Counted from the whole stretch's first letter, positions 6,464 to 46,238 are shown. The stretch: DNA of 63,990 nt, filler included, from Basidiobolus ranarum (GCA_040143965.1; 5 parts of 5 records of this genome joined end to end with filler, not necessarily neighbours in it), one strand, 5' to 3'. Notes: generated from the sequence alone by a model not told the origin. Translations and numbers: made by a program.

Positions 6464-7559
6464 TTAGGCCGAGATAGGTGCATATGTATAGGATGGTGGC
6501 GGCAGATCCGTGTACGAGGGTAAGGTTTGATACCTAGGAGGAGATATATCCAATGATAATTGTTCGCTGGACCTCACTATTACTGGTAAATCCTTTTGTA
6601 GAACGATTCTCTCTCCCTGTCGTTTGTCATTCATTTGAAATAGAATACAGAGTTCATGCTTCACTTGAATATATTCGGTGTTCAACGTGGGATAGACATC
6701 AAGAGGCAATATCAAGTCTGGGAGTAATCTTCGCGTGTTCTCACTGCCGACCATTGCATTCCCAAAGTTATCAAATTTGGCGCTTTTTAACGGATATTCC
6801 TGGGTGCGAAAGTCCCAACTACCCTCAGGGCCGGAATAGTGCGTAGTTTCAATAAGATAGAATCGAATTTTGTGAATGTCTAGATCATCCGTCAGCGATG
6901 TAAGGTCTAGAACAATGGGTACACGTTGGTTGATTATCAGGGTTGGTTCACTCACTGAAATGTGGTACCGAAAGCGATCTTGCCAGGTGCCTAGTGTCTC
7001 GCTGGAATACATCAGTGCGTCATTATAATAGGAAGAAGAATTGCGTTGGATCTCTATGGAGCGTCTAGCTTTCAGATCGAAATGAAGACCAGGTCTTTCT
7101 ACAACGGCAATCATTCGATACTCTATACGACCGTAAGGAAGGTCAGTGGACTCGGGGGTACTTCCATCCAAAGCTATCTCAAAAGGATAACGGTATTGAT
7201 CGTTTTTGAGAGTGTAGAAACCTTGTGTACGAGTTAGAATCTCCAGTTTCCGATTCACGATGATATGTTCTCTGCATGTAATATCTATAAAGGAGAAGAT
7301 TAATAAAAACTCTAGAAACGCTTTCATGATGAAGAAGGAACTTACTGTCGTTTTCATTTAGCCTAACCTTGCCCACAAACTTGGCCCAGATCGATTTCAC
7401 TTTTAGCGGATTATTTACAGTGAGAATAACGCTACCTCTAAGGACGCAGCCGACGGACTCTTGTGGAGTTCCCTGTAGGGTTAGGAGATCGTTTTCAATC
7501 TCGAATTCTAGTGAGGCATTCTTACTTAGGAAGGGGAGATTCTTGGAATGCTTAAACAT
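6464..7559 (-). CDS. Alpha-arrestin (ART-type ubiquitin ligase adaptor), paralogue 1; exons 7559-7346 and 7284-6464
   Basis: Arrestin-N motifs (GTPQESVGCVLRGSVIL; YPFEIALDGSTPES; GRIEY), C-terminal PY motifs PPRY/LPSY/PPSY. A 61-bp GTAAGT..TAG intron joins the two ORFs in frame. Confidence 0.9.
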
Positions 7560-8977: not shown

Positions 8978-10047
8978 TTAAGCTTGGATGGAAGTCGATG
9001 TATATTCGGGGGGTGATTCCAGGTTGGTTGTAGCTGGAGTTACAGAACCATATTCTGGAGGGGATGCATCTTGATCGATGCTTGAACGAATAGCAATAGG
9101 AAACTTGCTCTCAAGTACGCGCTTTTCTTCATTGTGCTTATCAATGATATGGAATAGTACCTGGATTTCATGTGTAATTTGAATATAATCCGTGTTCAAG
9201 CTCCACCTGACATTGGGAGGAAGAACAAGTTGTGGACATATCCTCCACTGCTTATTATCCTCAACGATTGTGTCATGCTTAATTTCTGACATAGGATGTA
9301 CTTTGGTTTGTAGGTCAATGGTACTTCCAGGGGTTCTACAACAGATGGTCTCAAGTAGACAAAACTCAATCTTGACAAGGTCAAAATCATTGGCGGTGCG
9401 AGTCAGATTCAATGAGACTGGGAACGGTTGGCCGATAATCACTGAAGGTTGAGGTATTTCTATGTTGTAGTGTAATCTCTCATCCCAATTTCCAGAAGAT
9501 TCAACCGGGACAGAACTGTATGTATAATCCGAGCTACGACGTAATTTAATTGTGCGCTTATCTCTTGAATCGAAATGAAGCCCAGTTCGCTCAGCGACAG
9601 CATATATCTTATAGCCAATCTTACCATTTGGTAAAGTAACAGATTCTGGCAAATTGCCTTCCAACGCAATTTCAAAGTTATATCGATATTGATTTGGCTT
9701 CAAATGGTATGGTCCTCCTTCAGCAGAGAGTAATTGAAATCTCCGCTCAACGAAAACATACTCCCTCCAAGAAACGTCTGAAAAAGCACGGTAAGATTCG
9801 AATTGATGCAGTGACTTACTAGCGAAGGCTATAAAAACTTACTGTCATTTCCGCACAATCTCGCCCTACCTATAAGCTTTCCGCGTAGGGATCTTAACTT
9901 GATTTCATCAAAAATAGTTAAAACTATTGATCCGCGAAGTACACAGCCAACAGAGTCTTCGGGGTTACCACGTAAGATGAGTGTATCATTTTCTAGCTCA
10001 ATACTCAAGAATTCTCCAGTGGTGAAATGGGCTGAAGTTGGAAACAT
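8978..10047 (-). CDS. Alpha-arrestin, paralogue 2; exons 10047-9843 and 9777-8978
   Basis: LRGNPEDSVGCVLRGSIVL, FEIALEGNLPES, two PPEY motifs. 65-bp intron at the same position and phase as in paralogue 1. Confidence 0.9.
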
Positions 10048-11493: not shown

Positions 11494-13033
11494 GGTTGAA
11501 ATTAGCATTGCATAAGCACCTATATAGCTATATATAGCTTAGTATTTAATTATCTTATATTTCACTAAGATATTATCCATTATTCTCAATTGGATTTTAC
11601 TTAGAATATTGACACCAACTTAGAAGTTCTCAGATATATTGATTTTTCAAACTTGTGCTAGAGGCCCCATACTTTGCACACATGTTCCTGGGATATTTGT
11701 TAACATATTATATATGTTAGCTTGTTTATATCTTGACAAAACTATAAATGTCAACTTTCTACTCTATAAATCAATTAGTGAAAACCACCAATTTCTCTGA
11801 TTCTCCAAACCACTTCCAACAGGCTCCCAAATACTTTGAAAGGTTATGAGCCCCAAGCTTGCACTCTCTGTTATGTCTACTCCTCAAATCTCAGAAACTT
11901 TTCATTTTTCCAAAAAATTGGATGGAGCCAATTATCAAGTTTGGAAAATCAAAATGAAAATGCTGCTGCAAGAAAAAAGACTTTGGGACACTGTTGTAGG
12001 AGAAGAAAACAATGCAAAACTATCTGAGACCAAAGTATTACTCCAGGTTAAAAAAGAACCAAGTGCCCTTAACACAAATTGTCTTAATGTTAAAGACAAA
12101 TTGCTAATTCAATGTTCAAGAGCTAAAACTGCCAAGAAGGTATGGAAAGCCTTGGAAGACACCTATCAAACATATTCTGTTGCCAACAAGATGTTTCTAA
12201 GAAGACAATTCTTCAACTTAAAGATGAAGCCAGGAGAAGATATTAAATCACTAATTAATAGAGTCACTATTTTAGTGGATCAAATGGAATGCATTGGAGT
12301 ACCTACCACTGATCAAGATATTGTAGTTACAGTTCTGAATAGCCTGCCAAATAAGTTTCAGAGCCTAGTAATGGCTCATTATATATTTGGCAGACTTTTG
12401 AATGAAGATTTACAAAAATTAGGATCCAACCAAAAGAATTAAGAAAATGCTATAATAGACTCTGGGAAACCTTCCTATAAAGGTCAAAAGCACTTTAAGA
12501 AGAAAAGTAACATATTCTGTGATCACTGTAAAAGAACTGGCCATTTAAGCCAAGATTGCTTTGAAGAATTGCAAAGAAGCAAAACATACTGAATTGGAAT
12601 ATGTGATTATAACAGAAGATCACTTGTTCATATCTGATCTATCTATGACTACCAACAAGGACTTTCAGACATGGTATATTGATTCTGGAGCTTCCCAACA
12701 TTTCACAAATGAAAAACAATGGTTTGTGGATTATGACAAAATCCCAATTAGAAAGGTTTTCATTGGAGATGATTACACATTGGATGCCATTGGAATGGGA
12801 ACAAATCAAGGAAATTTAACTGGAGCTTCTGAAGAGAAAGTGTATACTGTTAGGGATGTACTACATGTTTCAGATATTGCCAAGAATTTAGTATCTGTAT
12901 GCAAGGTCACCTCAGAAATGCTAAAATTCAATTTTGATAGGTCAGGATGCACCATCTCTGATCACAATGGGAATTATTTAGCTTTGGGAGAAAAGGATCT
13001 GAACTTATACAAACTTACAAACAATCCAAGGTT
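11494..13033 (+). mobile_element. Ty1/copia 5' part: 5' LTR (11494-11841), PBS, disrupted gag-protease; truncated by contig end
   Basis: LTR followed by GGTTATGAGCCC PBS. Gag KLDGANYQVWKIKMKMLL...LNSLP (11846-12442), zinc knuckle CDHCKRTGHLSQDC (~12518-12559), protease WYIDSGASQH and LHVSDIAKNLVSV. A stop and frameshifts split the polyprotein. Confidence 0.95.
11842..11853 (+). other. Primer binding site, internal tRNA-iMet fragment type
   Basis: GGTTATGAGCCC directly after the LTR; resembles the Drosophila copia-type PBS GGTTATGGGCCC. Confidence 0.8.
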
Positions 13034-13133
13034 NNNNNNNNNNNNNNNNNNNNNNNNNNNNNNNNNNNNNNNNNNNNTTAATTAATTAANNNNNNNNNNN
13101 NNNNNNNNNNNNNNNNNNNNNNNNNNNNNNNNN
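13034..13133. other. Artificial contig linker (N44-TTAATTAATTAA-N44)
   Basis: Six-frame stop linker flanked by Ns, identical at four places. Confidence 0.98.
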
Positions 13134-13424
13134 GCGATCGGTGGTAGCAAAAGGGAGCGTACGTGCCCTCCGTACGAGGATCGCACCATCATCCGTTGTG
13201 TAAATGACGACTGGTTCAAGACTATGTGTGGCGAAGGAACTGTCTGTCATGAGAAAGACCACACTGGACCATTCTGTGACCATGCTGATGACCATGAAGA
13301 ATGGGATCATGATGGAGACTGGGAAGGCGACCACGACGAACACAACGACTGGGAAGATGAACACCAACAAGATGGCCACGATGATGACTGGCATAATGAT
13401 GAAGACTGGGAAGGGGATCACTAA
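13134..13424 (+). CDS. His/Asp/Trp-rich secreted CBM19-like protein, copy 1 (5'-truncated by contig start)
   Basis: DRTIIRCVNDDWFKTMCGEGTVCHEKDHTGPFCDHADDHEEW...; the first ~40 bp are divergent, possibly low-quality contig end. Confidence 0.8.
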   Translation, partial: AIGGSKRERTCPPYEDRTIIRCVNDDWFKTMCGEGTVCHEKDHTGPFCDHADDHEEWDHDGDWEGDHDEHNDWEDEHQQDGHDDDWHNDEDWEGDH

Positions 13425-13960
13425 GGCAACCACGGTCATAATGATCATTTAACCAAAGTTCATACCTCTCGATGGCCTAGATTTAAGTTCATGTAGCGTC
13501 AAACCCAAATAAATTCTTTTTACATTATTACACAATATGCATACTGATGGGCCCCTTTTGAATTTTTGGATTGCAGTAGCGCGATGACTCAATGTTGTGT
13601 CATTAATGTTAGCCATATTGGGAAATATGGTGCTAACTACGGCAAGATCGGAGAAACCTATTGTGGGACTAGGTATATATGAGCTGCATGTTACTTGGAT
13701 TATGAAAGGTCCATTCTTTTAATTTAGTTTAAGCTTATACAAAATTGCATTGGAGATGGAATGGATTATCTTTATTTGGTGCGATATATTGCCTGGGTAT
13801 TTGAAGTTGACCAGAGCATAGATTTAATATCACTTGTTCAAGTTTATGCGAAAAGCGGGGCATGTATATATTGTATTATTTGATTTGATTTGTAGGGTAT
13901 ATTACAATACGGTATTATAAATAAATAACGAAAAGATAAAGCCGGAATAGGATAAGCTAC

Positions 13961-14244
13961 CTAGCGGTCATCCTCGTTATCGCTGTCATCGTGGTCTTCT
14001 TCCCCATCCTCATTGATATCCCAGTCTTCGTATTCATCCTCATCATGGTCGTCAGCAGAATCACAGAATGAACCTATTTGAACTAGTATATGCCATTACA
14101 AATAAATACATATGAGGATAGTGCCCCTTCTGATAAGTAGGGGAATTCATCAGTGTACCGTAAGAATCTTTTTTAAATACGCTTACCTTGAGTAAATTAA
14201 AGTAGGATCAAATATCTAACTGGGGTTAAATTAGTATACTTCAT
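13961..14244 (-). pseudogene. Inverted divergent family fragment (GSFCDSADDHDEDEYEDWDINEDGEEDHDDSDNEDDR*) with possible upstream signal-peptide exon
   Basis: 14073-13961 translates to an FCD+acidic tail after an AG. 14244-14187 reads MKYTNLTPVRYLILL*FTQ followed by GTAAGC. The Cys core is missing and the putative first exon has an in-frame stop. Confidence 0.55.
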
Positions 14245-14475
14245 AACCCTGAAAGAAACTGCGCTTGGCATTGGGATTCGGATGTAATGTAAGATGGCCT
14301 TTTCTTTTGGTTAAAGATGCAAATGCTACAGCGGCGAGCATATGATTTCAACTGTGCAGAGTCTATTTTAAGGACATTCTCCCATTTTGTGGTGTAAAGA
14401 CAAGACTTAAATATGATTGCTCAGTCACACTTAATTTTCAAATTACTACATCCTCCATAGATCTATCCTAAAACA

Positions 14476-14808
14476 ATGAAATTCTACACTATTCTGTTTG
14501 TACTCGCTCTACTGAGTCAGGTTGTGATCGGGTGTAGCAATATGGAGAGTAAGTGCTCTTCTGATGATGATCGCACCATCGTCCGTTGCGTCAATGACGA
14601 CTGGGTCAAGACCATGTGTGGTGAGGGAACTGTCTGTCATGAGAAGGACCATACTGGACCATTCTGTGACCATGCCGATGTCCATGATGGAGATTGGGAA
14701 GGTGACCACGACGAACCCAACGACTGGGAAGATGGAGACAACCACGATGACTGGCACAATGATGAAGATTGGGAAGGGGATCATCACGAGGATGAAAATG
14801 ATCACTAA
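14476..14808 (+). CDS. His/Asp/Trp-rich secreted CBM19-like protein, copy 2 (110 aa)
   Basis: Signal peptide MKFYTILFVLALLSQVVIG, C-x6-C-x10-C-x9-C-x5-C-x9-C, DWE/H-rich tail, AATAAA downstream. Confidence 0.9.
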   Translation: MKFYTILFVLALLSQVVIGCSNMESKCSSDDDRTIVRCVNDDWVKTMCGEGTVCHEKDHTGPFCDHADVHDGDWEGDHDEPNDWEDGDNHDDWHNDEDWEGDHHEDENDH

Positions 14809-16017
14809 ATCGGCGCCTAGATATCACGTTTTAATAAAGCCTGCAATGACACATTTTACATTAAATAAATGTGTTTTCACCACCTTTCTATCTAAATAGA
14901 GTATGTAATCATTACTGAACTTTATTTCTAAAGACTAAAGTGATGCATATAATGTGATAGAACTTTTTTTCTCTATACTCGCCATACCTAGATACCGGTA
15001 GCCATTTCCAAAATATCTGAGCTTCATTGGATGTGGATTGTGCGTCAGAGAGGTACTTGAGGTTGATAGTAGTTCAATAATCACGTTGTGATGATATAGG
15101 TAGAGGCAAGCAGTAAGTTATATATATACTGAAGGTATTCGACTTAACTGTACGATAGTATGACTACTTTGAATGATCTACAAATAACTCCCTTTACCTT
15201 TATTTGAAGGAGAATTTTGACTAGTTCAAGTAATATGTAACTTGAGCGATCCCTATAAAGCATGTCGATCTCCGTAGACCATAGCCTCACCCTAAGTTTA
15301 CTCAGGGCACTACATTCATAGGAATGGAAAATCCAAGAATCTCACTTGTTTCAGTTAAGACTTCAAGTTGTAGCCTAAACGCGTTGAGTATTTCACAATA
15401 GACCTTTCCCTCAGAAAATCTATGCTCATTTGTTAAACTTTTCTGCTATGGATGTTCACTTCCGGTAATACTTCAGAAGAATATATACATGATCAAACAT
15501 TGATTTTAATTATGGGTTTATTTAAAGCTTGAGCAACAAACTATACAGAATTTTTATTAGAGCACCTTGCTTGATTGAAGAGTAATAAGTTAAAGCGCTA
15601 CAATTTTGATATTTATATATTTCTGCCTCGTCCGGAAATCTAGTAGTATTTAAAACGTTTAAAACAGGGAAACAAGGACTGCAGTTGGCTTATAGCTGAA
15701 AATACTACTTGAGTTTCTGGATGTAATACACAAATTTATTTCTATGAATTTGATTCCTTTAGTAATCTCAGGGTAAGATTATAGTCTACTGCGATCGATG
15801 TTAGGCACATATTGCCTAAGCCAGTCAAATTTCTTCTACAAATAAAGGGAACGGGAGATATTTGTAGATCATTCAAAGTAGCCATACTATTGTACAGTTG
15901 AGTCGAATACCTTCAGTATATATATAGCTTACTACTTGCTTCTACCTATATTATCATAACGTGACTATTGGACTATTATCAATCTCAAGTACCTCTGTGA
16001 CCCACAATCCACATCCA

Positions 16018-16326
16018 ATGAAATTCTATACTGCTGTCTTTGCTCTTTCCTTCTTGAGTCAAATAGTGCTAGGATGTAAGCATATGGAGAGCAAATGCTC
16101 TTCCGATGATGATCGCACAATCATCCGGTGTGTCAACGATGACTGGGTCAAGACTATATGTGGTGAAGAGACTGTTTGCCGTGAGAAGGATCATACCGGG
16201 CCATTCTGTGACCATTCTGATGATCATGAGGAATGGGATCATGATGGAGATTGGGAAGACCACCACCAGGAACATGAAGAATGGGAAGGCGATCACCACG
16301 AAGATGAAGACGTTCACGAAGACTGA
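16018..16326 (+). CDS. Family copy 3 (102 aa; tail cut by TGA, repeat continues to TAA at 16377)
   Basis: MKFYTAVFALSFLSQIVLG-CKHMESKC...; TATATATA ~100 bp upstream. Confidence 0.88.
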   Translation: MKFYTAVFALSFLSQIVLGCKHMESKCSSDDDRTIIRCVNDDWVKTICGEETVCREKDHTGPFCDHSDDHEEWDHDGDWEDHHQEHEEWEGDHHEDEDVHED

Positions 16327-17402
16327 CGTCATGATGAAGATTTGGAAGGAGACCATAATGATCACCACGAAGATTAAGAGAATGACCATTTTATTTCATC
16401 AACTTACCACATTAATTCTTAATACTTTGAATGTTCCTTACTCTCACAGCACAAGGAGTAAACAACTTGAAATTATATATATTCCTAGTTACCTTTACGT
16501 ACCGTATTAGGTTCAACATATATACTCTTCTGTCCAGGGATTAAGAACTATCCAGTGAGCCTCCAATAAGAAAATATCGTTTCAGTAAAGAACTTTTATG
16601 CCTGCTTAAACTATAGTTGTAATTACGTGACCGGATTAACGAATCCATAATATGGATCTTAGTTGAACATTGATTTAACACGTAAGGAGATTATCTCCTA
16701 AAATAATTGTTATTGTGTGAATATGGTATAAATATAACTCGCAAAGGGTCAAGTAGTTTACAATCACAATCTAATGCACTAACTGTTTTAGGCAATCAAC
16801 TAACCCAAATATGAAATTGATATATGTGATACTTGTTTCAAGTTGTGTTGATCGTCGCTGTCTCACCAATAATAGTTATCAAAATGCTTATTATTGTACT
16901 TTTAATCTATGATCATTGCTGCATTGCCTACATTCGTAATACAGATGGACGTAATGCACGGTTTGATTGCACTAAAATCCAGCAAACTGCAACTGAAGGA
17001 TTGTCCGATATAACGTCTTTTAACCTTGGCTAAATAAAATAGATATGCAGCGAGGTCTCATCAGCCACTTACCTCTAAGTACCAACTCCATTTGAACATG
17101 TATCTTAGTGGCTTTGTTTCCAGTTTCTCAAGCAACGCTCCTATATATCCCTTGAATACATCCTAACTCCCCCTTATCCAACATATTATCAACCACCACA
17201 TCCTAACTTCTCTCATTTAATAGCGTAATTGATATGCACTTGCTGCAAAGAAACCTACACTACCTAGTTATTCTCGTATTAGTTTACATTAATAGTTGAC
17301 TCTGTCAAACTAACATGTTCAAAGCTATAAAACGAGGACGAATGCGTGGATAATGCTAAAACATTAGCACTTTTCGAATATCCCGCAATTGAATTTATAG
17401 TC

Positions 17403-17762
17403 ATGAAATTCTACGCCACTCTATTTATCCTCGCTTTCTTTAGTCAGGCGGTGATCGCGTGTACACATATGGAGAGTAAGTGCTCCTCGGACGATGATCG
17501 CACCATCGTCCGTTGTGTCAATGACGACTGGGTCAAGACCATGTGTGGCGAAGGAACTGTCTGTCATGAGAAAGAACACACCGGGCCATTCTGTGATCAT
17601 GCCGATGACCACGAGGAATGGGATCATGATGGAGATTGGGAAGACCATCACGAAGGACACGATGACTGGGAAGATGAACATCACGAAGATGGAGATAATC
17701 ACAATGACTTGCACCATGATGGAGACTGGAAAGAAGACCATGAAGATGAGAGTGATCATTAA
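17403..17762 (+). CDS. Family copy 4 (119 aa)
   Basis: MKFYATLFILAFFSQAVIA-CTHMESKC...; TATAAAA at ~17327. Confidence 0.9.
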   Translation: MKFYATLFILAFFSQAVIACTHMESKCSSDDDRTIVRCVNDDWVKTMCGEGTVCHEKEHTGPFCDHADDHEEWDHDGDWEDHHEGHDDWEDEHHEDGDNHNDLHHDGDWKEDHEDESDH

Positions 17763-18269
17763 GCTGGCTGTTCGACAAACTCTTTAGTAGAAATAGATTT
17801 TTCTTCCTAATTTACACTTCGGATCAATAAATATTTAATGTTATCTTATTCGTGTTGCGTCCTTACTAAATATAAATTGTCTCTATTTGTAAACTCTTAA
17901 TCAGTTAATTGTAGAATTTAGTTTCATGCTAGCTTATAGTTTGGATTCGGTAAGTTCGTCACCTTAATACCTTCAAGAATCATCTTGAGTGATGATCTCT
18001 GGTGTCGTCCAAGCACCTTCCTGAATGTTCTACTTCCTGGCTTGTAATTTTACTAGTAACTAGATGTAGAAAAACTTACTGCACATATACCCATATAATA
18101 TAGGTCTCTCTCGGTTGCTGCTACAAAACATTGAATAATATGAGCCCTCGTTTCAATGATATAAAAAACCAACATAATTACTGATTATTGCACCAGTGAA
18201 TTCATTAGCTATACACTCATTAATCATCTAGACAACAATACTCATACATCAATGTAATTATTAGCATTA

Positions 18270-18641
18270 ATGAAATTTTAAGCTACTCTTATCACTCTTG
18301 CTCTCTTTAGTCAAGCGGTGATGGCATGTACATATATGAAGAGCAAGTGTTCCTCTGAGGACGACCGTACTATTTTTCGTTGTGTCAATGACGACTGGTT
18401 TAAGACTATGTGTGGTGAAGAGATAGTATGTCGTGAGAAGGAGCACACTGGACCATTCTGTGACTATGCCAGTGACCACGAGGAATGAGACTATGATGGA
18501 GAGTGGGAAGACCACCACAAAGAACATGATGATTGGGAAAGTGATCATCAGGAAGATAGAGATGATCACAATGATGGAAACTGGGAAGATGATCACGAGA
18601 ACCATCACGACCATGGTGAAAACTAGGAAGATCACCGTTAG
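18270..18641 (+). pseudogene. Family copy 5, pseudogene
   Basis: ATG AAA TTT TAA (stop at codon 4), further in-frame TGA at 18486 and TAG at 18624; otherwise collinear with paralogues. Confidence 0.9.
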
Positions 18642-19773
18642 GTAGACCTAAACATTTGTTGAAATTGAGGTTCTTTCAAAGCACTAATAGTATAAATAAA
18701 CAACTTCCAAATTAAATTTAAATTTAACAAAAATACCTTTGGACGAGTTATTTCATTAATAGAAGTACCAAATTACAAATTATGCTCACAGGATATGTAT
18801 GGTATCTCTAGATTTTCTATTTTCTTAGTATACTTGCAGAGAAAATTAGGCAACCATGCTTCTCGCAGTCAACTAGAGACATTATGCCCATTTTTCCAGG
18901 AGCTTTTTTACTGTATGCCATTTGGATCTTCGTGATCTTCGATTCAGGGCAACATAAAAGTAAATAAAGAGTTCAGAACCACAATGTAATGTCGTTGAAC
19001 GTTTCGTATTACAAAGCATTTAGTATGTTAATTGTCTCCTAAAGATCGTATTACCTTTTATTGCGCGAGTGTGGTATAACTCGCAATGGATCAAGTAGTG
19101 GCCAAGTATACAATAATAATCTAATACACTAACTGGTTTAGGTAGTCAACTAACCCAAATATGAAAATTGATATATGTGATACTTGTTTCAAGTTGTGGG
19201 AAGATTGAAAATAATACTTGTTTCAAGTTGTAAGGGTATATTGATCGTCACTGTCTCACCAATAATAGTTATCAAATGCTTATTTTTGTACTTTTAATCT
19301 ATGATCGTTGCTGCATTGCCTACATTTGTAATGAAGGCGAATGTAAACGCACGGTTTGATTGCACTAGAATCCTGCAAACTGCACCTATAGGATTGTGTA
19401 ATATAACGTCTTTTAACCTTGTCTAAATAAAATAGATACGCAGTGAAGTCTCCTAAGTCATTTACCTCTCAAGTACTAGCCCTATTTGAATGTTTATCTT
19501 AGTGGTTTTGTTTCAAGTTTCTCAAGTAACCTTCGTTTATATCCCTCGAGTACATCCTAACTCCTCTTGATCCAACATAATATCAACCACTACTTTTCAG
19601 TTGCTCCTATTTATTGGGATATCCAAAAGTATTTACTGCAAGGCAACTCGCACCACTGGTTTTTCGTGTTGGTTCAGGGTAACAGTTAAATTCACATAAA
19701 CCTATAAAATGGTCACGATTGTGTTGGTAATATTAACAAAATATCAGATTATTCTGCAACTAGATCTACAGTC

Positions 19774-20133
19774 ATGAGATTCTGCGCCACTCTAATTCTG
19801 CTCGCTTTCTTTAGTCAAGCAGTGATGGCATGTACGCATATGGAAAGCAAGTGCTCCTCTGAGGACGACCGTACCATTGTTCGTTGTGTCAATGACGACT
19901 GGGTCAAGACCATGTGTGGTGAAGAGACAATGTGTCATGAGAAGGACCACACCGGGCCATTCTGTGACCACGCTGATGACCACGAAGACTGGGATCATGA
20001 TGGGGATTGGGAAGACCACCACGAAGAGCATGATGACTGGGAAGGTGATCAACACAAAGATGGAGACAATCACGACGACTGGCATCATGATGAAGACTGG
20101 GAAGGAGACCATGATGATCACCATGAAGATTAA
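19774..20133 (+). CDS. Family copy 6 (119 aa)
   Basis: Signal peptide, 6-Cys module, His/Asp tail; TATAAAA at ~19703. Confidence 0.9.
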   Translation: MRFCATLILLAFFSQAVMACTHMESKCSSEDDRTIVRCVNDDWVKTMCGEETMCHEKDHTGPFCDHADDHEDWDHDGDWEDHHEEHDDWEGDQHKDGDNHDDWHHDEDWEGDHDDHHED

Positions 20134-20880
20134 GAGAACGACCATTAGATCGTTAGACTGGTTCCTTGACAAACTCATATGTAGAAATAGAATCTTTTTC
20201 ATAATTTACATTTCAGATCAATAAATATTCTCTGTTATTATATTTGCGTTGTGTCCGTGTTATACATAAATCATTTATATTTGTTGACTTCTAATTAGCT
20301 AACTGTAGAACTTGATAACAGAACAGTGTAATTAATTTATCAATCATTATTTACTTAGCACGCCTGCCGTGAACTCTAACTTTGTGTGCCGGTATCTGAA
20401 ATGCTGTAACGACTCCCAACTTACTATATATATATACTTCCATGTGCTCAACACTTTACTTCTCTGAATAAATCGGATATTGAACTTGTTGACAGCCAGG
20501 ATCTATCGACACTACTTAAACCTGTGGGTAAATTGCAACACTCAATATCAAATCATTTAGCCTCTTAATTTGGCATTTTAATTACTACAAGAGTTATCCA
20601 GGGTGATATCTCTGGTGTCCTCCAAGCACCTCCCTGAATGATTTACTTCCTCGCTAGGAAATTCATTGATGACTAGATGTAGAGGCACTTCATGCACATA
20701 TACCCGCATAATATAACTCTTCTACAATTGCTACTATAAAATATTGACAAATTGGGTCCTTGAACCTAATAGTATAAAAGGAAGGAAGCATTACTAACAA
20801 TTACAACAGTCAATTCATCAACTTTACATTCTTTAATCATCTAAACATTAACAATATAGCATCACCACTTGTTAGTAATC

Positions 20881-21279
20881 ATGAAATTCTACGCTACTCT
20901 CATGACTCTCGCTCTCTTCACTCAGACTGTGAGGGCATGTACGCATATGGAGAGCAGGTGCTCCTCTGAAGATGATCGTACCATCATTCGTTGCGCCAAC
21001 GACGTCTGGGTCAAGACTAAGTGTGGTGTGGAGACTGTCTGCCGTGAGAAAGATCATACTGGTCCATTCTGCGACCACACTGATGACCACGAAGACTGGA
21101 GTCATGATGAGGATTGGGAAGACCATCACGAAGAGCATGATGACTCGGAAGGCGATGATCACGAAGATGGAGACGATCACGATGAATGGCACAATGATGG
21201 AGACTGGGAAGATGACCACCGGGATAATGACGATCACGGTGATGGACATGAAGGAGATGACCATCATGATGAAGACTAG
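20881..21279 (+). CDS. Family copy 7 (132 aa)
   Basis: MKFYATLMTLALFTQTVRA-C...; TATAAAA at ~20773; ends at TAG with repeat-like codons continuing to 21300. Confidence 0.9.
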   Translation: MKFYATLMTLALFTQTVRACTHMESRCSSEDDRTIIRCANDVWVKTKCGVETVCREKDHTGPFCDHTDDHEDWSHDEDWEDHHEEHDDSEGDDHEDGDDHDEWHNDGDWEDDHRDNDDHGDGHEGDDHHDED

Positions 21280-22145
21280 GAGGATCAGCATGAGCATTAA
21301 ATCAGCAACTTAGACATAAGTATTTGTCAAAATAGACGTTTCTTCATGAATAATCCCTATTTTAGCATTAATAAACATTTTCGTATATTATATCTGTGCT
21401 TACCAGGTAGTCTGATGTCTTTACCAGATTTTAACACTTAAAATACTCTATATACTGGAAGTCGATAGAACCTGACAGGCTAATAATATTCTTAGACAAG
21501 ACTAAGTTTTCTGGCGAGACGATCGGTGTGTAAAACGCCCTAACGTAAATACTAGACTACAGTCAACTTTAAGGTTAAGATGAGAAGGTCCACATCAGAC
21601 AATATTGAGATTACTTGCACTGTATCTCCTAAACTTACGGTACGATCAATGCTTTTCTCTGTCTTGCAATCACAATTTAACGCATTATATATTCTTTGAT
21701 ATTTATTCTCATGTTGTAAAAGAATTTCAAATATGAAAACTACGTATATGTAATACTTGATTTAAGTTTTGAGGGAATTCGATCTACGATCATCATTACT
21801 TGCTAATAAGGAAGAACTCCCTAGCAAACCTTTATTGTACTAAATGCGATAAGCTGCAACGGCAAAATTGTGTGCTATAACATCTTTACAACTTATATAA
21901 AGGCATATAGCGAGATCAAATTCATTGGTAACTAGATGCAGAGACACTTCATGCACACATATCCATACAATAATAAAGCTCTCCTACAGTTGCGGTCACA
22001 AGACCTAACGTTATAGGAACCCTCATCCTAATGGTATAAAACGAAGACATAATTGCTCATAGTTGCAACAGTCAATTCATCAGCTTTACATTCTTTAATT
22101 ATCCAAACATTAACACTCATATAGCATCACCACTTGTTAGCAACC

Positions 22146-22544
22146 ATGAAATTCTACGCTACTCTTATTACTCTCGCTCTCTGTAGTCACGCTGTAATGG
22201 CATGTACACATATGGAGAGCAAGTGCTCCTCTGATGATGACCGTACCATCATTCGTTGTGTTAACGACGATTGGGTCAAGACTAAGTGTGGGGTGGAGAC
22301 CGTCTGCCGTGAGAAAGATCACACTGGGCCATTCTGTGACCACGCTGATGACCACGAAGACTGGGATCATGATGGGGATTGGGAAGACCACCACGAAGAT
22401 CATGATGACTGGGAAGGCGATCATCACGAAGATGGAGACGATCACGATGAATGGCACAATGATGGAGACTGGGAAGACGGCCTCCATGAAAATCATGACC
22501 ATAATGATGAACATGAAGATGTCCTCCATCATGATGAAGACTGA
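22146..22544 (+). CDS. Family copy 8 (132 aa)
   Basis: MKFYATLITLALCSHAVMA-C...; TATAAAA at ~22035; proximal flanks very similar to copy 7. Confidence 0.9.
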   Translation: MKFYATLITLALCSHAVMACTHMESKCSSDDDRTIIRCVNDDWVKTKCGVETVCREKDHTGPFCDHADDHEDWDHDGDWEDHHEDHDDWEGDHHEDGDDHDEWHNDGDWEDGLHENHDHNDEHEDVLHHDED

Positions 22545-23653
22545 TAGGGTCATCATGAAGAAAGTCATGAGAATTAAACCTGTGACTTAGGCATAAGCAT
22601 TTGTCGAAATAGACGTTTCTTTAAAACAAAACCCTATTGGCATTAATAAACATATTTTTATATTATATCTGTGCTTACCAGACAGTTTGATGTCTTTGAT
22701 AGATTCTAGTACTTGGAGTATTCTATACACCGAGAGTCGATAGAATCTGAAATAACATTTAAGAATGCCTGTAGTATATGTGTTGCAACACATAATGCCA
22801 ACCATTTTCTCGAGGCACAACCTTGATTTAGCTATCCCTTGCTTAACAAAAACCAAGATGGTGATCAATATGAGAAATACTTTGCTGGAGTACCGGAATT
22901 GAGCTCATCATGCTATTTTTTTGGAAGAGCAGATCATTTTCAATAATTACTGCTTCTAGCCGATCTTTTATGCGCTACCTGATTCTTCTAATGATATTAA
23001 TGCGTGTAGGTATCTCTTTAAGTTCTGTTTTCTTCATATACTAGTAGAACAAGTCTGGGAATAATGATTTCTTAAGTCAAATGATACTACACTTGATTTT
23101 CCTGAAATGGGCCTCCTAAATATAGTGGCAGCACGTAAGTTTACCTACTGAAGCGTCGCAGATGATCGGGAATAGCTCTTAATTTCATAATTTTTGAAAA
23201 GGACGAGTTTTTTGATTGGTATAGTAATTGGTTCTTTGTGATCTCCAATGCAGGGCCTGAATCTTTTAACATAAAGGCAAGTAAACCAGTCTTCAGGAAA
23301 CACAATGCAGGGTAATGTAGTTAAACTCTGATGCGATATTACGAACTTCTCTTGTTGATTGACTGCAATCCTTCAAATTTAGCATGTACTTACTGAAAAC
23401 AATCATTGATAGTATTCCGCGCCCCTAGAGCACCACCCTTAGAGATCAACCAAGAATACTGCATCACGAATGTGATTTCAATAGATTTTATAGGTAACTC
23501 GATTTTGCATTCCCGCACAGCTAGAACCGCCAATACTGGAGTAAGGGGTTCGTTCTCTTTAATGGTATAAAATGAGCATAGGATTACCAACCAAAACATT
23601 CAATTCATCGACTTTAACTTCATTACTACTATACAATATTCCTCATATATCAA

Positions 23654-24063
23654 ATGAAGTTCTACGCTACTCTTATTGTCCTCGCATTTTTAGTCAGGCT
23701 GTAATGGCATGTACGCATATGGAGAGTAAGTGTTCCTCTGAGGATGACCGTACCATTGTTCGTTGTGTCAATGACGACTGGGTTAAGACCAAGTGTGGTG
23801 TGGAGACTGTCTGCCGTGAGAAGGACCATACCGGGCCATTCTGTGACCATGCTGATGACCACGAGGAATGGGATCATGATCGAGATTGGGAAGACCACCA
23901 CGAAGAGCATGATGACTGGGAAGATGATCACCACGAAGATGGAGATGATCACGATGACTGGGATAATGAAGGAAACTGGGAAGATGACCACGAGAACAAG
24001 CACGAGCATGATGATGAACATGAAGATTGGGAAGATCACCATGAAGATGGTCACGATCATTAA
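23654..24063 (+). pseudogene. Family copy 9, 1-bp frameshift in signal peptide (pseudogene or homopolymer sequencing error)
   Basis: ATGAAGTTCTACGCT at 23654; span is 410 bp (one short of 411). T5 run at 23687-23691 where paralogues have TTC TTT. The rest of the ORF is intact. Confidence 0.8.
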
Positions 24064-24855
24064 ATCCGCGACTTAGACATGAGTATTAATTGAAATAGAC
24101 ATTTCTTGAAAACACAACCCTATTAGCACCAATAAACGCGCCCTTCAATTATATTTAAATTCTTTGTTTATGTTTGATTCCTTCGACAGCAGATTTCGTT
24201 TATTGTAATATTAAATGACTTGATAGTCAAGGTAACTTGACAGACACATCATTATTAGCTCAACCTGTGAAATGAGCACGCCAACCTTTAACGTACTGGT
24301 CTCAGTATCAACCGTTTAAGTACATTGAGCATAAATCAACGCGATGATCAATTTGTTTATGCGCTGGTTACTGTACAAGAATTACGCTCAATTCATCTTC
24401 ATGTTTTATATTCTTGGAAAGGACAAATATTTTTAGATCTTTAATGGCATTCTTTCAACATGCATACGATGGAGTAATATGTGGTTGAATTTTGATGCGA
24501 TAATACACATTTATCTCGTCGATTGGCCATAATCATGCAAGTTTACCCTTGCAGTAGTATCTCGCGTTGTCAGAGTATACCACCCTGAAAGATTTACCAA
24601 GTACATTGCATTACATACATCAACTTCATTGATTTTATTGGTCACTAGATGTAGATGCGCTTACTGTGCACATACTAACATAGCATAACTCTCTCATAGT
24701 GGCAACCACAAATTATTAGATAATAGGAACCCTTATCTCGATGCTATAAAATGAAGGTACAATTACTAGCTATTTCAACAATCTATTCATCAATTATACA
24801 TTCATTAATCATCTAAACGATAATACGCATATATCATTGTCATTTATTAGCAACT

Positions 24856-25260
24856 ATGAAATTCTACGCTACTCTTATTACTCTCGCTCTCTGTAGTCAG
24901 GCGGTGATAGCATGTACGCATATGGAGAGCAAATGTTCCTCTGAGGATGACCGTACCATTGTTCGTTGTGTCAATGACGACTGGGTTAAGACTAAGTGTG
25001 GTGTGGAGACCGTCTGCCGTGAGAAGGATCACACTGGTCCATTCTGTGACTATGCCGATGACCACGAAGAATGGGACCATGATGGCGATTGGGAAGACCA
25101 TCACGATGAACACAATGACTGGGAGGATGATCATCACGATGATGAGCATGATGACTGGCATAACGATGAAGACTGGGAAGATGACCACGAGAACAATCAC
25201 GGGCATGATGATGAACATGAAGATTGGGAAGATCACCATGAAGACAGTCACGATCATTAG
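24856..25260 (+). CDS. Family copy 10 (134 aa)
   Basis: Signal peptide + 6-Cys module + 70-aa tail (hand count ~17 His, 6 Trp, ~38 Asp/Glu, no Lys/Arg). Confidence 0.92.
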   Translation: MKFYATLITLALCSQAVIACTHMESKCSSEDDRTIVRCVNDDWVKTKCGVETVCREKDHTGPFCDYADDHEEWDHDGDWEDHHDEHNDWEDDHHDDEHDDWHNDEDWEDDHENNHGHDDEHEDWEDHHEDSHDH

Positions 25261-25937
25261 AGTAGCTACTTGAATATACACATATGCTTAAACAGACATT
25301 TCTTAAAAGATATTATAGTTGGCATTAATAAACATCTTCAGATGCACTACTTATTTTTTACCCAATAATCTGATTGTTTCGACAGTACATTTCATAGATA
25401 GAAATAATAACGGACCAAGTAGTCCATGAAATCCTGCGTAGAACATCAATCCCTATCTCAATTATCAAAAACACTTTGTTCTTACTTTGCCTCATTAAGA
25501 GTCTTCAAATTATCCTTGTATTCAATATCTTTGGAAAAAGTAAATCCTTTTACGTATATACTAACCGTCACTTGAGGATCAGCAGTGCCAGGGCCTCCAA
25601 TGCAGTATAATGTAATTAAAACGGATACAATAGCGTGAGTTTCATCTCGTGTTTTGCAGCCCTCCTGGTTCACATTGTACTTAACAAATAGTGATTTCAA
25701 ATAATGTTTATTGGAAACGCGATGTATGTACACTTACTGTACACCCATCCACATGGCATCCCTCCCTCGCAGTTGTAACTACTAGTAATTGAGCAAGATG
25801 TTCCTTTTCTTCAATGATATAAAATGAGGATACAATTACTTTAACAATATCAATTTATCAATTGCATTTTCATCAATCAGCTAAAAGACACTACTCATAT
25901 ATCATTATCCTTTAATCATCATCCTTTACAAGCAACC

Positions 25938-26144
25938 ATGAAATTCTACGCTACTCTTATTACTCTTGCTCTCTGCAGTCAGGCGGTGATAGCATGTACG
26001 CATATGGAGAGCAAGTGCTCCTCTGAGGATGACCGTACCATTGTTCGTTGTGTCAATGACGACTGGGTTAAGACCAAGTGTGGTGTGGAGACTGTCTGCC
26101 GTGAGAAGGATCACACTGGACCATTCTGTGATCATGCCGATGAC
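25938..26144 (+). CDS. Family copy 11 (3'-truncated by contig end)
   Basis: N-terminus nearly identical to copy 10; sequence runs into Ns after FCDHADD. Confidence 0.88.
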
Positions 26145-28702: not shown

Positions 28703-29501
28703 TTACTGCAAGTCCTTGAAACACTTTCGACATTCTGCATTATTACTCAACTCGCTACGAAGAGGAATGTAAAGGCAGTGCTTACAGTAAACCTTTGTTT
28801 TGCGATATCTAATTAAGAGGTCGGTTATTGCACTGGAAGTTAGTTTTTGATGAGTATTGTTCCACTGAATACCTTAATCCACAAGAATTACAAAGAGGAA
28901 CTTGGTCAGACCATCCAGGACGCCAACAAGGAGTATGCTTTACTCCGCACGAGGCACAGCATTTTTTAAGACCCGCTGGTCCTGGACTGACGGAGGAGGA
29001 TTTTCTAGGCGAGGTTATTTCATGAGAGTGATGCACAGGCTCTATTTCACCATGAGATACACTCTCATCATGCAAATTTGAATGTGACACAGAATCAAGT
29101 AATAATTGCGTACTGGATCTTCTTTGCTTATTTGCATTGGCTGTTGAAGATTTTGTCTTGGACGTCTTGGGTACCCCAAAATCTAAAGATTTGGCACGCC
29201 TCTTTCTGGCGACATGTGACAAGAGTACTGGATAATGTAAAATGATGCTACCTTCCAACTTATCTTTTATCTCATCCTCACCAGTAGAGCTAGAAGAAGA
29301 GATTGGGGATCCGACTGGACTCGGCAGGCTCTGTTTCATAGGTGAGGGAGGGAAGAATATTGGGAATTTGAATACTACACCAGGAGATGTCTCTAGATCA
29401 AACCTACTGGGCGACTTTACTGGGACCCCTTTACGTTTATTTCTGCGCATGGGGTTGCCGGATTTTGGAAGAATAATATCAATTTCGGTAGCAACGGTCA
29501 T
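28703..29501 (-). CDS. Ash1-type GATA zinc-finger transcription factor; exons 29501-28873 and 28808-28703
   Basis: CASC-x18-CNSC with [17 protein letters not shown] 64-bp intron gives [21 protein letters not shown], the second Cys cluster typical of Ash1-like factors. Ser/Pro-rich N-terminus. Confidence 0.88.
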
Positions 29502-32500
29502 TGTGTCAAGAGAATATTGTACCGGAGGATATGAAGATGAAAGATCAATAGAGGTAGCTATGATATCCTAAAAAACACAGATCACAAAATGATAGCGGGT
29601 AAGCATCAGAATAGTGAAGATTGAAGACGTATCATAAAGGCTTCATGTTGAGAGAATTGCTTTTGTATCAGTGTAATGAAAATGAGCCTGTATACAGTCA
29701 ATACTCACAAATTATATCAGAATGGAATAGTCTTCGACGATCGATCAGTATTTGTTGTGAAGGTGTATTGTGCAGGCAAGCGGAAATGTATTGAAGGTAA
29801 AGTGGCTGTTCAGAAGCACAAATGTAGTATCTAAACTGTATGTAAGGGGATCAAAGAAGGCTTGATCTTCAGAAATACTCGTTGCAAAAGGTGAGTTACA
29901 AGTCACAGGAACGATGTTGACAAGAATCAGCGTTTGTATCCAACTAATATGATCCTACAGAGTGTAAGAACGTAGCCAAGTAACGACAAGATCAACGAAT
30001 ATACCGGAATATAATCCAAGTCCTGCAAAGTGAACGAAGGATATAAGAGAGAGAGAGAGAAAGATAAGGATACTAACAAAACCGAACCAGAGGAGAGCGC
30101 GCTTATATAGTTGCCTACTCCTCACCTGCACTAATTGGACTCCTGTGCCACTTCACTTACTTCCGAGCTTCTCACCTGATTGCCTGATATAGTCCAACCA
30201 GGTCGATGGAGTTTCCATAATAAATTATAAGGAGATGGTATCGATTCTTCCAATCATGTAGCGGCGAAGCGATTTAACAACGAAATATCAAAGCCTCACA
30301 CAGCCGAACTGTCTGTGGTATAAGAATGCTAGAGGATCTTGAGTGCCAGGTAGCTACACACGCTGTCAATACACACAGTTCTTCTAGAAGATGCATACCA
30401 CTTTGCTGTCTGGGTTGACACGCTGATAAGGGCGTTGTGGACAATTCAAGAGGTTTGATGCTAAGTTCGAGCCATACAGAGGGAACGGTCGATAGCACGT
30501 ACCAAAGTAATAGACAATTTGAGGAGTTGGCCTTTCATATGGGATATTGCATTGTAGATTAGTGATCAGGAACGTAAGCCTAATGAGTGATATCCATCAG
30601 TATTTTTGCAGACAGATGGAGGCAAAGTGGATTGTTTCAAGATGCAATAAAGGGTGAATATGCTCGGATCATAATGTTTTTCAAATCAAGGAAGGTATTG
30701 TATACCATGGAGCATCAGATCTGAAGTCAACGCCTTAAAATGGAATCCATTCATGCACTGAACATCCAAATTCCCAGCTTGCAAACCTGCAATCGCTTTC
30801 CTTGAGACCCCATCATTTCCTAAAATTTTCATTTTTCATCCTCTTGTAAATCTCACTCGTACAAAATATCCTTGCCTGTTGCTTGGCTTTGTGTTCTATT
30901 TTATTGCCTATTCTTAAGAATTCTGGAACATTTGTACTACCCCATATGCACACCTTGACCCATCTGCTAAAAGAGTGATTTAGCCTTATAGTTCTCTGTA
31001 AAAAGAGTACAGAATTAGGACAAACATTATGGGCGCTGTTCTACCAATCTACTCTCCTATATGACCCAGCATGTCTTGACCGTTAATGATCTCTAAGGGA
31101 GGAGCTCAGTGACAGTGCTGATACCATACTAGTGTAGACGACTAGGGGCTCTGTTCCATTTTCCCTTAAAAGAGTAGCTTGCTGTTTTTGCTCAGGGCAA
31201 CATGAATACCAGGTAATGATCGGTAACATATGACGTATCCATTTTTCAATCACCTGTTGGTAAATTGAATGAATGAGCTTAATTTCTTCTATCCACACAG
31301 TGTTTGTATAAATAACATCATGTATAGTTTAGCATGAGCTATTATCCAACACCATGCCGATCTATACCTAGAACGAGCCCCAATGGGCACAATTTAAACT
31401 CACAGTCTGGTGTGAGAGTATCAGATCGGCACTACTTCCTAGCTCTAAGGCTGTACTGGTAGTTCCTGCGCTTCAGAGATGTGCTAGTAGTTGCCAGTAT
31501 AAAGCCTTCAATGGATAGCATTATAACGTCAATTATTTCGAGCGGAAACTCTGGTTGAGGTCTCTCTACCGGGGTTTGATCATTACTATGTGGTTAAGGT
31601 TTTGGAAGGTATGGACTGTGTATCAATGAGTTTGACATCATTTATTCCAGTCTCGGAAGTATTTTGTCCTTATCCAATAAATCATGGAGGCTTCACTTAG
31701 CACGATTGTTAGGGGTTTCAGGATAATGCGGATTATCCTTCATTTATTTGCTTAAACAAATTTGATTTTTCTAAAATTCCATTTCGAGCAACCTCCTCAT
31801 ATTCGTTTGTTAATATCAAAATGCAAGGATGAATCACATCTATTTTAAGCGAAATTCTGCAACTCTTTATTCTGTAGAAGCCTTTGTGGAAATCACAGCT
31901 GAGATCAGAGCACCAGCGTGGTCATTGAAGCTTGTGCTGCTCGGGACTCTCATAACAGAGTGGTGTTTCTTCTGTATGGATCTAACGCTTCATGCCTCTT
32001 AATTTGTTCATGTCACAAGTCTTCTTAACCTTTGGAATCTACATACGCCTTCTAAAACACGTTGACTCATCAATGATACACATTGGGTCAGGAGTTCGGC
32101 ATGCTTAAACAGGCTTGTATTTCAATGATTTGATATCGATTTTCTCATTGCAACACATTAGTGACTTGAATTGGCGCGCATCTGATCGAAATCACTCTCT
32201 GTTGGCAATACAATTACTCGAAAGAGATACCTAACAAGATGGTGATTTTGGCAGTAGATCATTATCTTCATTAAAATTCTTCAACTATGGCCTATCCATT
32301 TCAAACAAACAGGATTCTCCGTACTATTGCGCCTGAGATAAGACTCCCATAGAGACGGCGCAGTAGTATACAGGCAAAGAACAACGGTACGAGGCTCTAG
32401 TTATATTGACCTAACATACCTGCATCTAAGATTAGTAGAAACTAAGTGAAATGACTCAAACCATTCTTGTCAATATATAGAGACATTCGGTCGTTATTCA

Positions 32501-45800: not shown

Positions 45801-46238
45801 GATAGGTAGACGGCTGGAGGTTTCTGCTTTGGATTGTATTTTTGGAATAACACTAAACAATCCTTTCTGATCAATAGACATGATGTCCATTTTAAGCAGG
45901 CTGAATCACTAGCAAGCTCAGCCAATTGTCACCGTACATCATAGATATATGAATCACCACTTGTTTATCATTTCTAACAAAACAAAGCTTACTCGGTTAC
46001 GAACCTGAGTCTCTCCCCCTCACACATGATTGTACTAGCATCATATTTCCTGGACTTGGTATTTTGTAAGTCGAATGTAATGGTAACTGCTTCAGTAATT
46101 CCCATTTTTCTATTTTTGTCATCTGACTACGTGAAATTGCTACTTCAGATAACTTGAGATAGTTAAAAGTATATAATCCTTGATGCCTTCCTCAATTCTA
46201 CTCATTCATCTCTTTCGTGAGTTAACTGACCATTCACA

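Follow-up and report, generated by a model that had tools for sequence, protein, structure and literature searches.

Introduction

Why would a fungus keep, side by side, eleven copies of one small secreted-type gene whose product ends in a tail of aspartate, glutamate and histidine punctuated by tryptophan, and what might such a protein do? The question is raised by a stretch of Basidiobolus ranarum DNA (GCA_040143965.1) of 63,990 nucleotides, hereafter the window, which consists of five contigs of ~13 kb each separated by N spacers; the genes lie on the contig at 13134-26144 (13,011 bp). We argue below that the copies are a genuine gene family, old and kept by selection, and that the cysteine-rich module at the front of each protein is, as far as sequence comparison can tell, homologous to genuine CBM_19 repeats. 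Our best reading of the protein, to which we give a probability of about 0.35, is a coat protein that would be anchored on chitin by this module and would bind cations (Zn, Cu or Ni) with its tail; both chitin binding and metal binding are activities that we infer. The combination of the module with a His/Asp/Trp tail is an undescribed one, namely that of a small secreted CBM-type protein whose unusual tail is conserved position by position.

An old array under selection

A six-frame regular-expression search of the whole window for the Cys/Trp pattern of the protein returned nine matches on the + strand, all of them on contig 13134-26144, and tblastn with one intact copy as the query (c10; the copies are numbered c1 to c11 along the contig) located 11 gene copies on the + strand of that contig and none on the other four. 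Seven copies (c2, c3, c4, c6, c7, c8 and c10) are intact and complete and encode 102-134 amino acids. A preliminary description of this DNA had counted at least 11 copies on the same strand, a number that the tblastn search confirms; its statement that the contig consists of such copies has to be given up, as they occupy ~29% of it (3,830 of 13,011 bp) and spacers of 0.5-1.2 kb make up the remainder. The single orientation holds for all 11 copies, but not for an inverted degenerate relic on the - strand at 13961-14095. Each contig end interrupts a copy (c1 at the start and c11 at the end), as had been observed before, and because both ends cut a copy the array plausibly extends beyond this contig. 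There were no Rfam matches and no tRNA, and Tandem Repeats Finder (TRF) reported only two repeats, both inside tails (a 30-nucleotide unit present 2.2 times in c3 and a 21-nucleotide unit present twice in c9), the period of the genes themselves lying above the TRF limit.

The copies have diverged considerably from each other. Their coding DNA is 75-85% identical, most spacers are unalignable, and the synonymous divergence (dS) between copies spans 0.22-2.2. The ratio of non-synonymous to synonymous divergence (dN/dS) is 0.045 in the module, at a mean dS of 1.2 (28 pairs, eight copies), and ~0.11 in the tail, where 13 of 21 pairs were computable and the other eight were saturated at synonymous sites; in the signal peptide it rises to 0.45, indicating weaker constraint there than in the module. 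The closest pair, c10 and c11, is separated by a dS of 0.22 and a dN of 0.006. None of the eight inner branches of the copy tree is supported, and the tree shows a loose split of c1-c4 from c5-c11 at 76/84. Sequence upstream of the gene is present for ten copies, and eight of these carry TATAAAA between -71 and -120 (25 occurrences window-wide, both strands); ~220 bp of conserved upstream sequence is common to five copies; each gene of the array would have its own TATA-type promoter.

An artefact, whether from haplotypes that were collapsed, from faulty assembly or from open reading frames (ORFs) that arise by chance in low-complexity DNA, might be suspected from the shortness of a contig whose two ends both fall inside copies, and from the long antisense ORF that overlaps every copy. 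Against this suspicion, the copies differ by 15-25% in their DNA, the spacers differ as well, the dN/dS of the module is as low as stated above, and homologues occur in the independently sequenced species B. meristosporus, so that we consider an artefact barely credible and are nearly certain that the array represents a real, selected gene family. Judged from these divergences, the array is old and has been kept by selection, and it owes its existence neither to recent amplification nor to misassembly.

The antisense ORFs over the copies (- strand, e.g. 13086-13448, 14509-14805 and 24847-25281) encode at most 144 amino acids and are rich in Ile, Val, Met and Phe. They arise because the codons GAT, GAC, CAT, CAC and GAA, for Asp, His and Glu, stay open when read backwards, and we rejected them as genes; one that was tested had no Pfam match.

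Architecture of the protein

The proteins open with a hydrophobic stretch that has Val at -3 and Ala or Gly at -1 in all seven intact copies, a signal-peptide-like start that agrees with the 19-residue signal peptide proposed earlier, judged here from hydrophobicity and the -3/-1 residues only. The module that follows has the pattern C-x6-C-x10-C-x4-W-x4-C-G-x2-T-x-C-x9-C, just as first described; W43 and F63 are invariant in the family, and the module is acidic (pI 4.7-6.1, charge -1 to -5). Every mature protein has six Cys and none has an N-glycosylation sequon. The earlier view of an amplified family of small, non-enzymatic, secreted-type proteins is supported. After cleavage of the signal peptide the mature protein would comprise ~83-115 residues, with a divergent six-Cys module in front and a probably flexible tail behind.

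If a cut after residue 19 is assumed, the mature N-terminus is predicted to read Cys-x-His in six of the seven intact copies and in three of six B. meristosporus proteins. His as the third residue behind a free N-terminus constitutes the amino-terminal Cu(II)- and Ni(II)-binding (ATCUN) motif. We also considered the tail as the anionic pro-piece of a cationic antimicrobial peptide and rejected this idea, since the module is itself acidic, no dibasic processing site separates it from the tail, and each tail holds 0-1 Lys or Arg.

The tails of the seven intact copies are 38-70 residues long (72 in c9) and consist to 67-79% of Asp, Glu and His. Their acidic and His-rich composition had thus been recognised correctly in the preliminary description, and its length range of 40-70 residues is lowered to 38-70. 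Each tail contains 8-17 His, 3-6 Trp and at most one Lys or Arg and has a charge of -20 to -37 at pH 7, roughly every fourth or fifth residue being His. Trp is always flanked by acidic residues, and 18 of the 31 Trp stand in D-W-E, in keeping with the regularly spaced Trp and the scarcity of Lys and Arg reported previously; HxxxH occurs 25 times in the seven tails. The first ~48 tail residues can be aligned over nine copies, and in these nine tails column conservation is higher for Trp (0.95) and His (0.91) than for Asp (0.81) and Glu (0.80), which implies that the His/Trp pattern, and not acidity alone, is under selection. Codon use in the tail is mixed (GAT 86, GAC 56; CAT 44, CAC 46), so the tail is not a simple nucleotide repeat. 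For the mature protein as a whole (pI 4.1-4.4), the calculated charge runs from +15 to +26 at pH 2.5 to between -23 and -39 at pH 7.

A word search with the tail alone gave six candidates, among which the only match was the query itself. When solved structures were compared with the family profile, the only match was the engineered FLAG/His8/Strep tag on 7f3t_A (E 4.6, non-significant), which illustrates the tag-like nature of the natural tail (e.g. 25048-25257).

Origin of the module

Whether the module is a CBM19 has two answers, one formal and one evolutionary. The Pfam model CBM_19 (PF03427) has 61 positions and a gathering cut-off of 20.1 bits. Matches of the family to it are sub-threshold, at 11-13.6 bits (best scores 13.1-13.6 bits, E 0.067-0.44), and any match at all was seen for four of ten proteins, one of three further B. 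meristosporus proteins and none of three partial or frameshifted copies. For CBM_14 (PF01607, peritrophin-A) there is no Pfam match of the family. Formal membership of the module in CBM19 is therefore not borne out, whereas its homology to CBM19 is, by way of two multi-repeat proteins of the same genus.

The first, P0008, is a genuine Basidiobolus protein with four CBM_19 domains (42.4 bits, E 6.9e-11), and the second, P0009, is B. meristosporus K493DRAFT_373193, with four CBM_19 stretches (46.1 bits) and also a CBM_14 match (28.9 bits). A profile of the family retrieved P0008 at E 3.6e-6 from 1,835,955,588 representatives; hhalign gave 89.8% for the family against P0008 and 93% against P0009; BLASTP gave E 2e-7 with six of six Cys aligned; and tblastn with P0009 as the query found all 11 copies but no other part of the window. 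Alignment of the family with P0008 and P0009 runs from end to end over their signal peptide and first repeat, and the CBM19 signature C..N.xW....CG..T.C is common to the family module, within a set of positions that are invariant over 14 sequences (C20, C27, C38, N40, W43, V44, C48, G49, T52, C54, C64 and D65). The P0008 and P0009 repeats likewise have six Cys, and they match positions 23-60 of the CBM_19 model. Homology of the module to genuine CBM_19 repeats is well supported by these comparisons, and we consider it likely that the module is of the CBM19/14 type. In the simplest scenario, the family would have arisen within the Basidiobolus lineage from the N-terminal part of a protein with several CBM19 repeats, the later ones of which would have been replaced by the acidic tail. 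In fungal GH18 chitinases CBM19 accompanies an enzyme, whereas here a single module stands with no GH18 attached, and the acidic tail was on none of the CBM19 proteins found.

Several observations weigh against carrying this homology over to function. No member of the family reaches the Pfam cut-off (best 13.6 versus 20.1 bits), and the matches cover positions 23-56, 24-56, 27-56 or 14-56 of the 61 in the model. The module has six Cys, against eight in the CBM19 of yeast chitinase, which part of bioRxiv 10.1101/2024.02.02.578540 describes as a four-disulfide knot. Compared with the P0008 and P0009 repeats, the family module carries three inserted residues from Cys2 to Cys3, and Tyr before Cys2 and Phe before Cys3 are replaced by Ser and by Ile or Val, respectively; with these two aromatics lost the sugar-binding face may be altered, which calls for caution over chitin binding. 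Structure comparison with an ESM Atlas model of residues 20-66 is ambiguous too: it retrieved CBM_14 parts of chitinases at template modelling (TM) scores of 0.71-0.73, and CBM_14 chitinases together with the CBM_19 of Zoopagomycota GH18 proteins at 0.71-0.77, all below the tool's bar, and EGF-like, myxobacterial, giant-virus and unannotated proteins appeared at the same TM scores. Weighing homology and losses, we put the odds that the module binds chitin at a little better than even.

Searches of the PDB by sequence gave nothing significant, the matches being rubredoxin (E 3.3) and, for P0009, nanobody and factor H-related chains (E 0.03-0.4). The UniRef name of P0009 refers to a Sushi domain; we rejected this assignment, since Pfam identifies CBM_19 and gives no Sushi match at E up to 1.

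Relatives in Basidiobolus meristosporus

A word-indexed search of 5.8 billion clusters returned the window's own protein and three hypothetical proteins of B. meristosporus CBS 931.73, and a cluster look-up added four relatives, giving seven B. meristosporus gene models in total (K493DRAFT_300676, 300675, 350425, 309320-309322 and 360630; accessions ORX96942, ORX96941, ORX96939, ORX69839-41 and ORX84725), all of them unannotated hypothetical proteins. They share with the window copies 63-81% module identity, the same signal peptide, six Cys and an acidic His/Trp tail. Their genes are clustered as well, the accessions running consecutively on two contigs (155,646 and 17,415 bp), but gene numbers differ, at 3 + 3 + 1 on three contigs compared with at least 11 in the array. 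The tails differ in texture: in B. meristosporus they are built of 2-4 regular DGDHDDHW units, while the window copies have an irregular 48-residue pattern. One B. meristosporus subfamily (P0004/P0012) carries a nearly His-free Glu/Asp tail with one His and one Trp. The B. meristosporus proteins P0002, P0010 and P0011 are near-identical paralogues or alleles with three, two and four DGDHDDHW units, respectively, and these differing numbers indicate that tail length in this species evolves by gain and loss of repeats.

The profile search mentioned above returned six proteins at E<=0.001, of which two are representatives of the family and one is P0008; P0006 (a seven-transmembrane protein with a repeat) and P0007 (a mucin) were rejected as spurious matches that do not belong to the family, and the remaining match, P0005, is 7,596 amino acids long. 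Two metagenome scans gave 198 pattern matches each, none of which was confirmed. As far as the collections searched show, the family appears restricted to Basidiobolus, which NCBI taxonomy places in Basidiobolomycota. The window is in this respect Basidiobolus-like, which comes close to the Zoopagomycota that the preliminary description had named for comparison. The preliminary description had not recognised the architecture as a named family, and we agree, since no Pfam family is matched at cut-off and all relatives are hypothetical proteins. In public data the family exists solely in that unannotated form. In the literature searched, which did not extend to supplementary tables, we found no description of the family or of a CBM19-type module joined to a His/Asp/Trp tail; the secretome tables of PMC9391592 and the expression tables of PMC7466969 may list genes of the family.

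Proposed function and its rivals

In the reading that we favour, the module would dock on chitin, which could belong to the wall of the fungus itself or to food and insects in the gut of an amphibian or reptile, and the tail would project from the chitin surface as a high-capacity ligand of divalent cations. The combination of His imidazoles and carboxylates would favour Zn2+, Cu2+ and Ni2+, and metal would be concentrated, buffered or sequestered at the wall. The presence of both ligand types, the frequency of HxxxH and the stronger conservation of His would point to Zn, Cu or Ni rather than to a purely electrostatic role; that transition-metal binding is the main role of the tail we hold at less than even odds. 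Since the calculated charge of the tail flips with pH, loading and release of metal would depend on pH, and the many old, conserved copies may mean that a high dose of the protein, or a graded series of tail lengths, is required. A flexible His-rich C-terminus that binds Zn via four imidazoles is described for the zincophore Pra1 in part of PMC9175090 and has been modelled as foraging 'arms' (PMC12663325, in the section concerned), and Basidiobolus is portrayed in part of PMC7466969 as investing heavily in siderophores for metal acquisition. In a bolder version, which we regard as rather doubtful, the proteins would form a new class of protein metallophore, a pH-switchable sponge on the wall of a gut-passaging fungus or on its food chitin, encoded by a dozen genes, that would take up Zn, Cu or Ni when the pH is neutral and give the metal off again once acid reverses the charge of the tail, the conserved Trp aiding coordination or reporting metal-induced folding.

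Three further observations sit uneasily with a metal-binding tail. In the P0004/P0012 subfamily the tail has remained acidic with a single His and a single Trp, so His is not universally required. Consensus promoter motifs for responses to zinc, copper, iron and pH are not enriched upstream of the copies, a weak test as their consensus is that of ascomycetes. Contig 13134-26144 holds the array only, with no transporter or other neighbouring gene.

Avr4 exemplifies a mechanism in which chitin is shielded against chitinases, and gastric chitinases are present in insect-eating amphibian and reptile hosts. A shield of this type against host or microbial chitinases would suit a stand-alone, non-enzymatic, secreted-type protein in many copies with a module homologous to the CBM19/14 type, and its tail would serve, in place of a metal site, as a charged brush that switches with pH, carrying positive charge in the stomach and negative charge in the intestine of insect-eating amphibians and reptiles. 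The charge reversal calculated above for the mature protein between pH 2.5 and pH 7 would fit such a passage, as would the life of Basidiobolus as a herptile gut fungus (parts of PMC9391592 and PMC7466969); the greater conservation of His and Trp than of Asp and Glu is left unexplained by a brush, however, and the two aromatics of the parent CBM19 repeats have been lost, and we judge a shield to be unlikely. The tail might instead act as a polyanionic decoy that binds cationic antimicrobial peptides of the host or protonated chitosan in the wall, its Trp helping to capture amphipathic peptides while the module stays anchored in the wall. Its net charge with hardly any Lys or Arg, the acidic flanks of every Trp (18 of 31 in DWE) and the retention of acidity by the subfamily that loses His all favour this idea, for which the shedding of Msb2, which shields Candida albicans from antimicrobial peptides (PMC3271078, in part), is a precedent; yet a pure polyanion needs no His, and here His is both abundant in the tail and conserved in position (0.91), which makes a decoy distinctly improbable in our view.

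Two other explanations give up part of this scheme. The module may have lost chitin binding and now serve in a small, lineage-specific, Cys-rich secreted effector or signal that has a different target, its CBM19 ancestry being of historical interest only. Sub-threshold Pfam scores, the two lost aromatics, the three residues inserted from Cys2 to Cys3 in comparison with P0008 and P0009, and the acidity of the module are what one would expect in that case, but the invariant core of N40, W43, G49 and T52 is common to genuine CBM_19 repeats and very strong purifying selection holds the module near its CBM19 parent, and we take such a loss to be quite unlikely. Finally, the protein could organise a matrix, an adhesive or a mineral, being crosslinked by Ca2+ or Zn2+ or nucleating mineral in a spore wall or adhesive. 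Many copies would suit a bulk material, and the architecture is analogous to the pair of chitin-binding Pif97 and acidic, mineral-binding Pif80 (PMC11291548, in part); against that, the proteins are very small, the repeats seen in them are limited to the DGDHDDHW units of B. meristosporus and the short tail repeats of c3 and c9, and the literature searched yielded no mineral- or metal-hardened structure in Basidiobolus, so that this explanation seems very unlikely. Several of these rivals are mutually compatible.

The individual copies and other contents of the window

All copies lie on the + strand. The array opens with c1 (13134..13424), which the contig start truncates on the 5' side, so that its sequence opens near codon 17; its 48-residue tail is complete, its first Cys codon has changed from TGT to GGT, leaving five Cys, and the copy is probably degenerate. 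The inverted relic on the - strand (13961..14095, GSFCDSADDHDEDEYEDWD...) comprises the end of a module and a tail, with neither a start nor a complete module. It was found at E 3e-7 by tblastn without composition adjustment and weakly, at E 0.11-0.26, by composition-adjusted BLASTP, and it forms inverted DNA repeats with c1 over 31 nucleotides at 84% and 58 nucleotides at 71% identity. Its inverted position between c1 and c2 implies at least one inversion or insertion event in the array.

The next three copies are intact: c2 (14476..14808) encodes 110 residues with a 46-residue tail and matches Pfam CBM_19 below the cut-off (E 0.099, 13.1 bits); c3 (16018..16326), with 102 residues, has the shortest tail at 38 residues and TATATAT at -101; and c4 (17403..17762) encodes 119 residues behind TATAAAA at 17326-17332 (-77). 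The fifth copy, c5 (18270..18626), is a pseudogene with a nonsense codon at codon 4 (TAC to TAA, 18279-18281) and a second one at a tail Trp (TGG to TGA, 18486-18488), and otherwise-invariant positions of its module are altered too. Three intact copies follow, each with TATAAAA upstream: c6 (19774..20133; 119 residues; 19703-19709, -71), c7 (20881..21279; 132 residues, 68-residue tail; 20773-20779, -108) and c8 (22146..22544; 132 residues, 68-residue tail; 22035-22041, -111). In c9 (23654..24063) one nucleotide is deleted in a T run of the signal peptide at about codon 13, with module and 72-residue tail otherwise intact, and the deletion may be a true frameshift or an error of sequencing. The search reference copy c10 (24856..25260) is intact, with 134 residues, a 70-residue tail and TATAAAA at 24745-24751 (-111), and c11 (25938..26144), its closest paralogue, runs for 69 intact codons to the contig end. 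The predicted mature proteins of the seven intact copies would begin at codons starting at 14533, 16075, 17460, 19831, 20938, 22203 and 24913 on the + strand.

Elsewhere in the window, two adjacent arrestin-like ORFs with PPxY-like ends lie on the - strand at 6464-7357 and 8978-9838 (Arrestin_C, E 6.6e-11 and 4.8e-13), and a copia-type retrotransposon fragment at 11840-13033 (+; Retrotran_gag_2 E 1.6e-32, Pol_BBD E 3.1e-21) reaches the end of the first contig. The other contigs carry ordinary fungal genes: a GATA zinc finger gene (28809-29567, -), a GH9 endoglucanase that looks secreted and is truncated by the end of its contig (38125-39237, +), an M13 peptidase with a signal-like start (46230-48266, +), Sec66 (53903-54502, +) and a RabGAP-TBC domain (57555-58097, -).

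Significance

If the chitin-anchored metal binder is the right reading, no earlier description of a protein that binds metal while tethered to wall or chitin would exist for early-diverging fungi, and the family would also be a case of a carbohydrate-binding repeat that has been detached and refitted with a new functional tail. If that reading is wrong, the family would be another lineage-specific family of small secreted fungal proteins, of which fungi have many. The system is tractable, with proteins of ~10-14 kDa that carry built-in Trp reporters, and nature supplies the tail variants: lengths of 38-72 residues here, 2-4 units in B. meristosporus, and the P0004 subfamily as a His-poor control. 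A natural metal-binding tag anchored on chitin might also find use in biosorption or protein immobilisation.

Comparison with known systems

The CBM14 effectors of the Avr4 type resemble the family in being small, secreted, stand-alone, Cys-rich chitin-binding modules, and P0009 also matches CBM_14; they differ in having no acidic His/Trp tail, and the family itself is without a CBM_14 Pfam match. The mollusc Pif97/Pif80 pair, as described in part of PMC11291548, likewise pairs chitin binding in one domain with cation binding in a strongly acidic portion, but these are animal proteins, much larger, with VWA domains, binding calcium carbonate and lacking the His/Trp pattern, and no homology to them was seen.

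The nearest functional counterparts are Pra1 of Candida albicans and Aspf2 of Aspergillus, secreted fungal proteins that bind Zn2+ with a flexible His-rich C-terminus and bring the metal back to the cell surface (PMC9175090 and PMC12663325). They resemble the family in function and not in sequence: Pfam matches of the family consist of the sub-threshold CBM_19 and chance matches, and no Pfam family of the Pra1/Aspf2 core (HRXXH-type motifs) appears at E up to 10. Pra1 has a large folded zinc-binding core and docks on the transporter Zrt1, the gene for which is adjacent to its own. No transporter gene is linked to the array, and in the Basidiobolus proteins the anchor would be chitin, where for Pra1 it is Zrt1.

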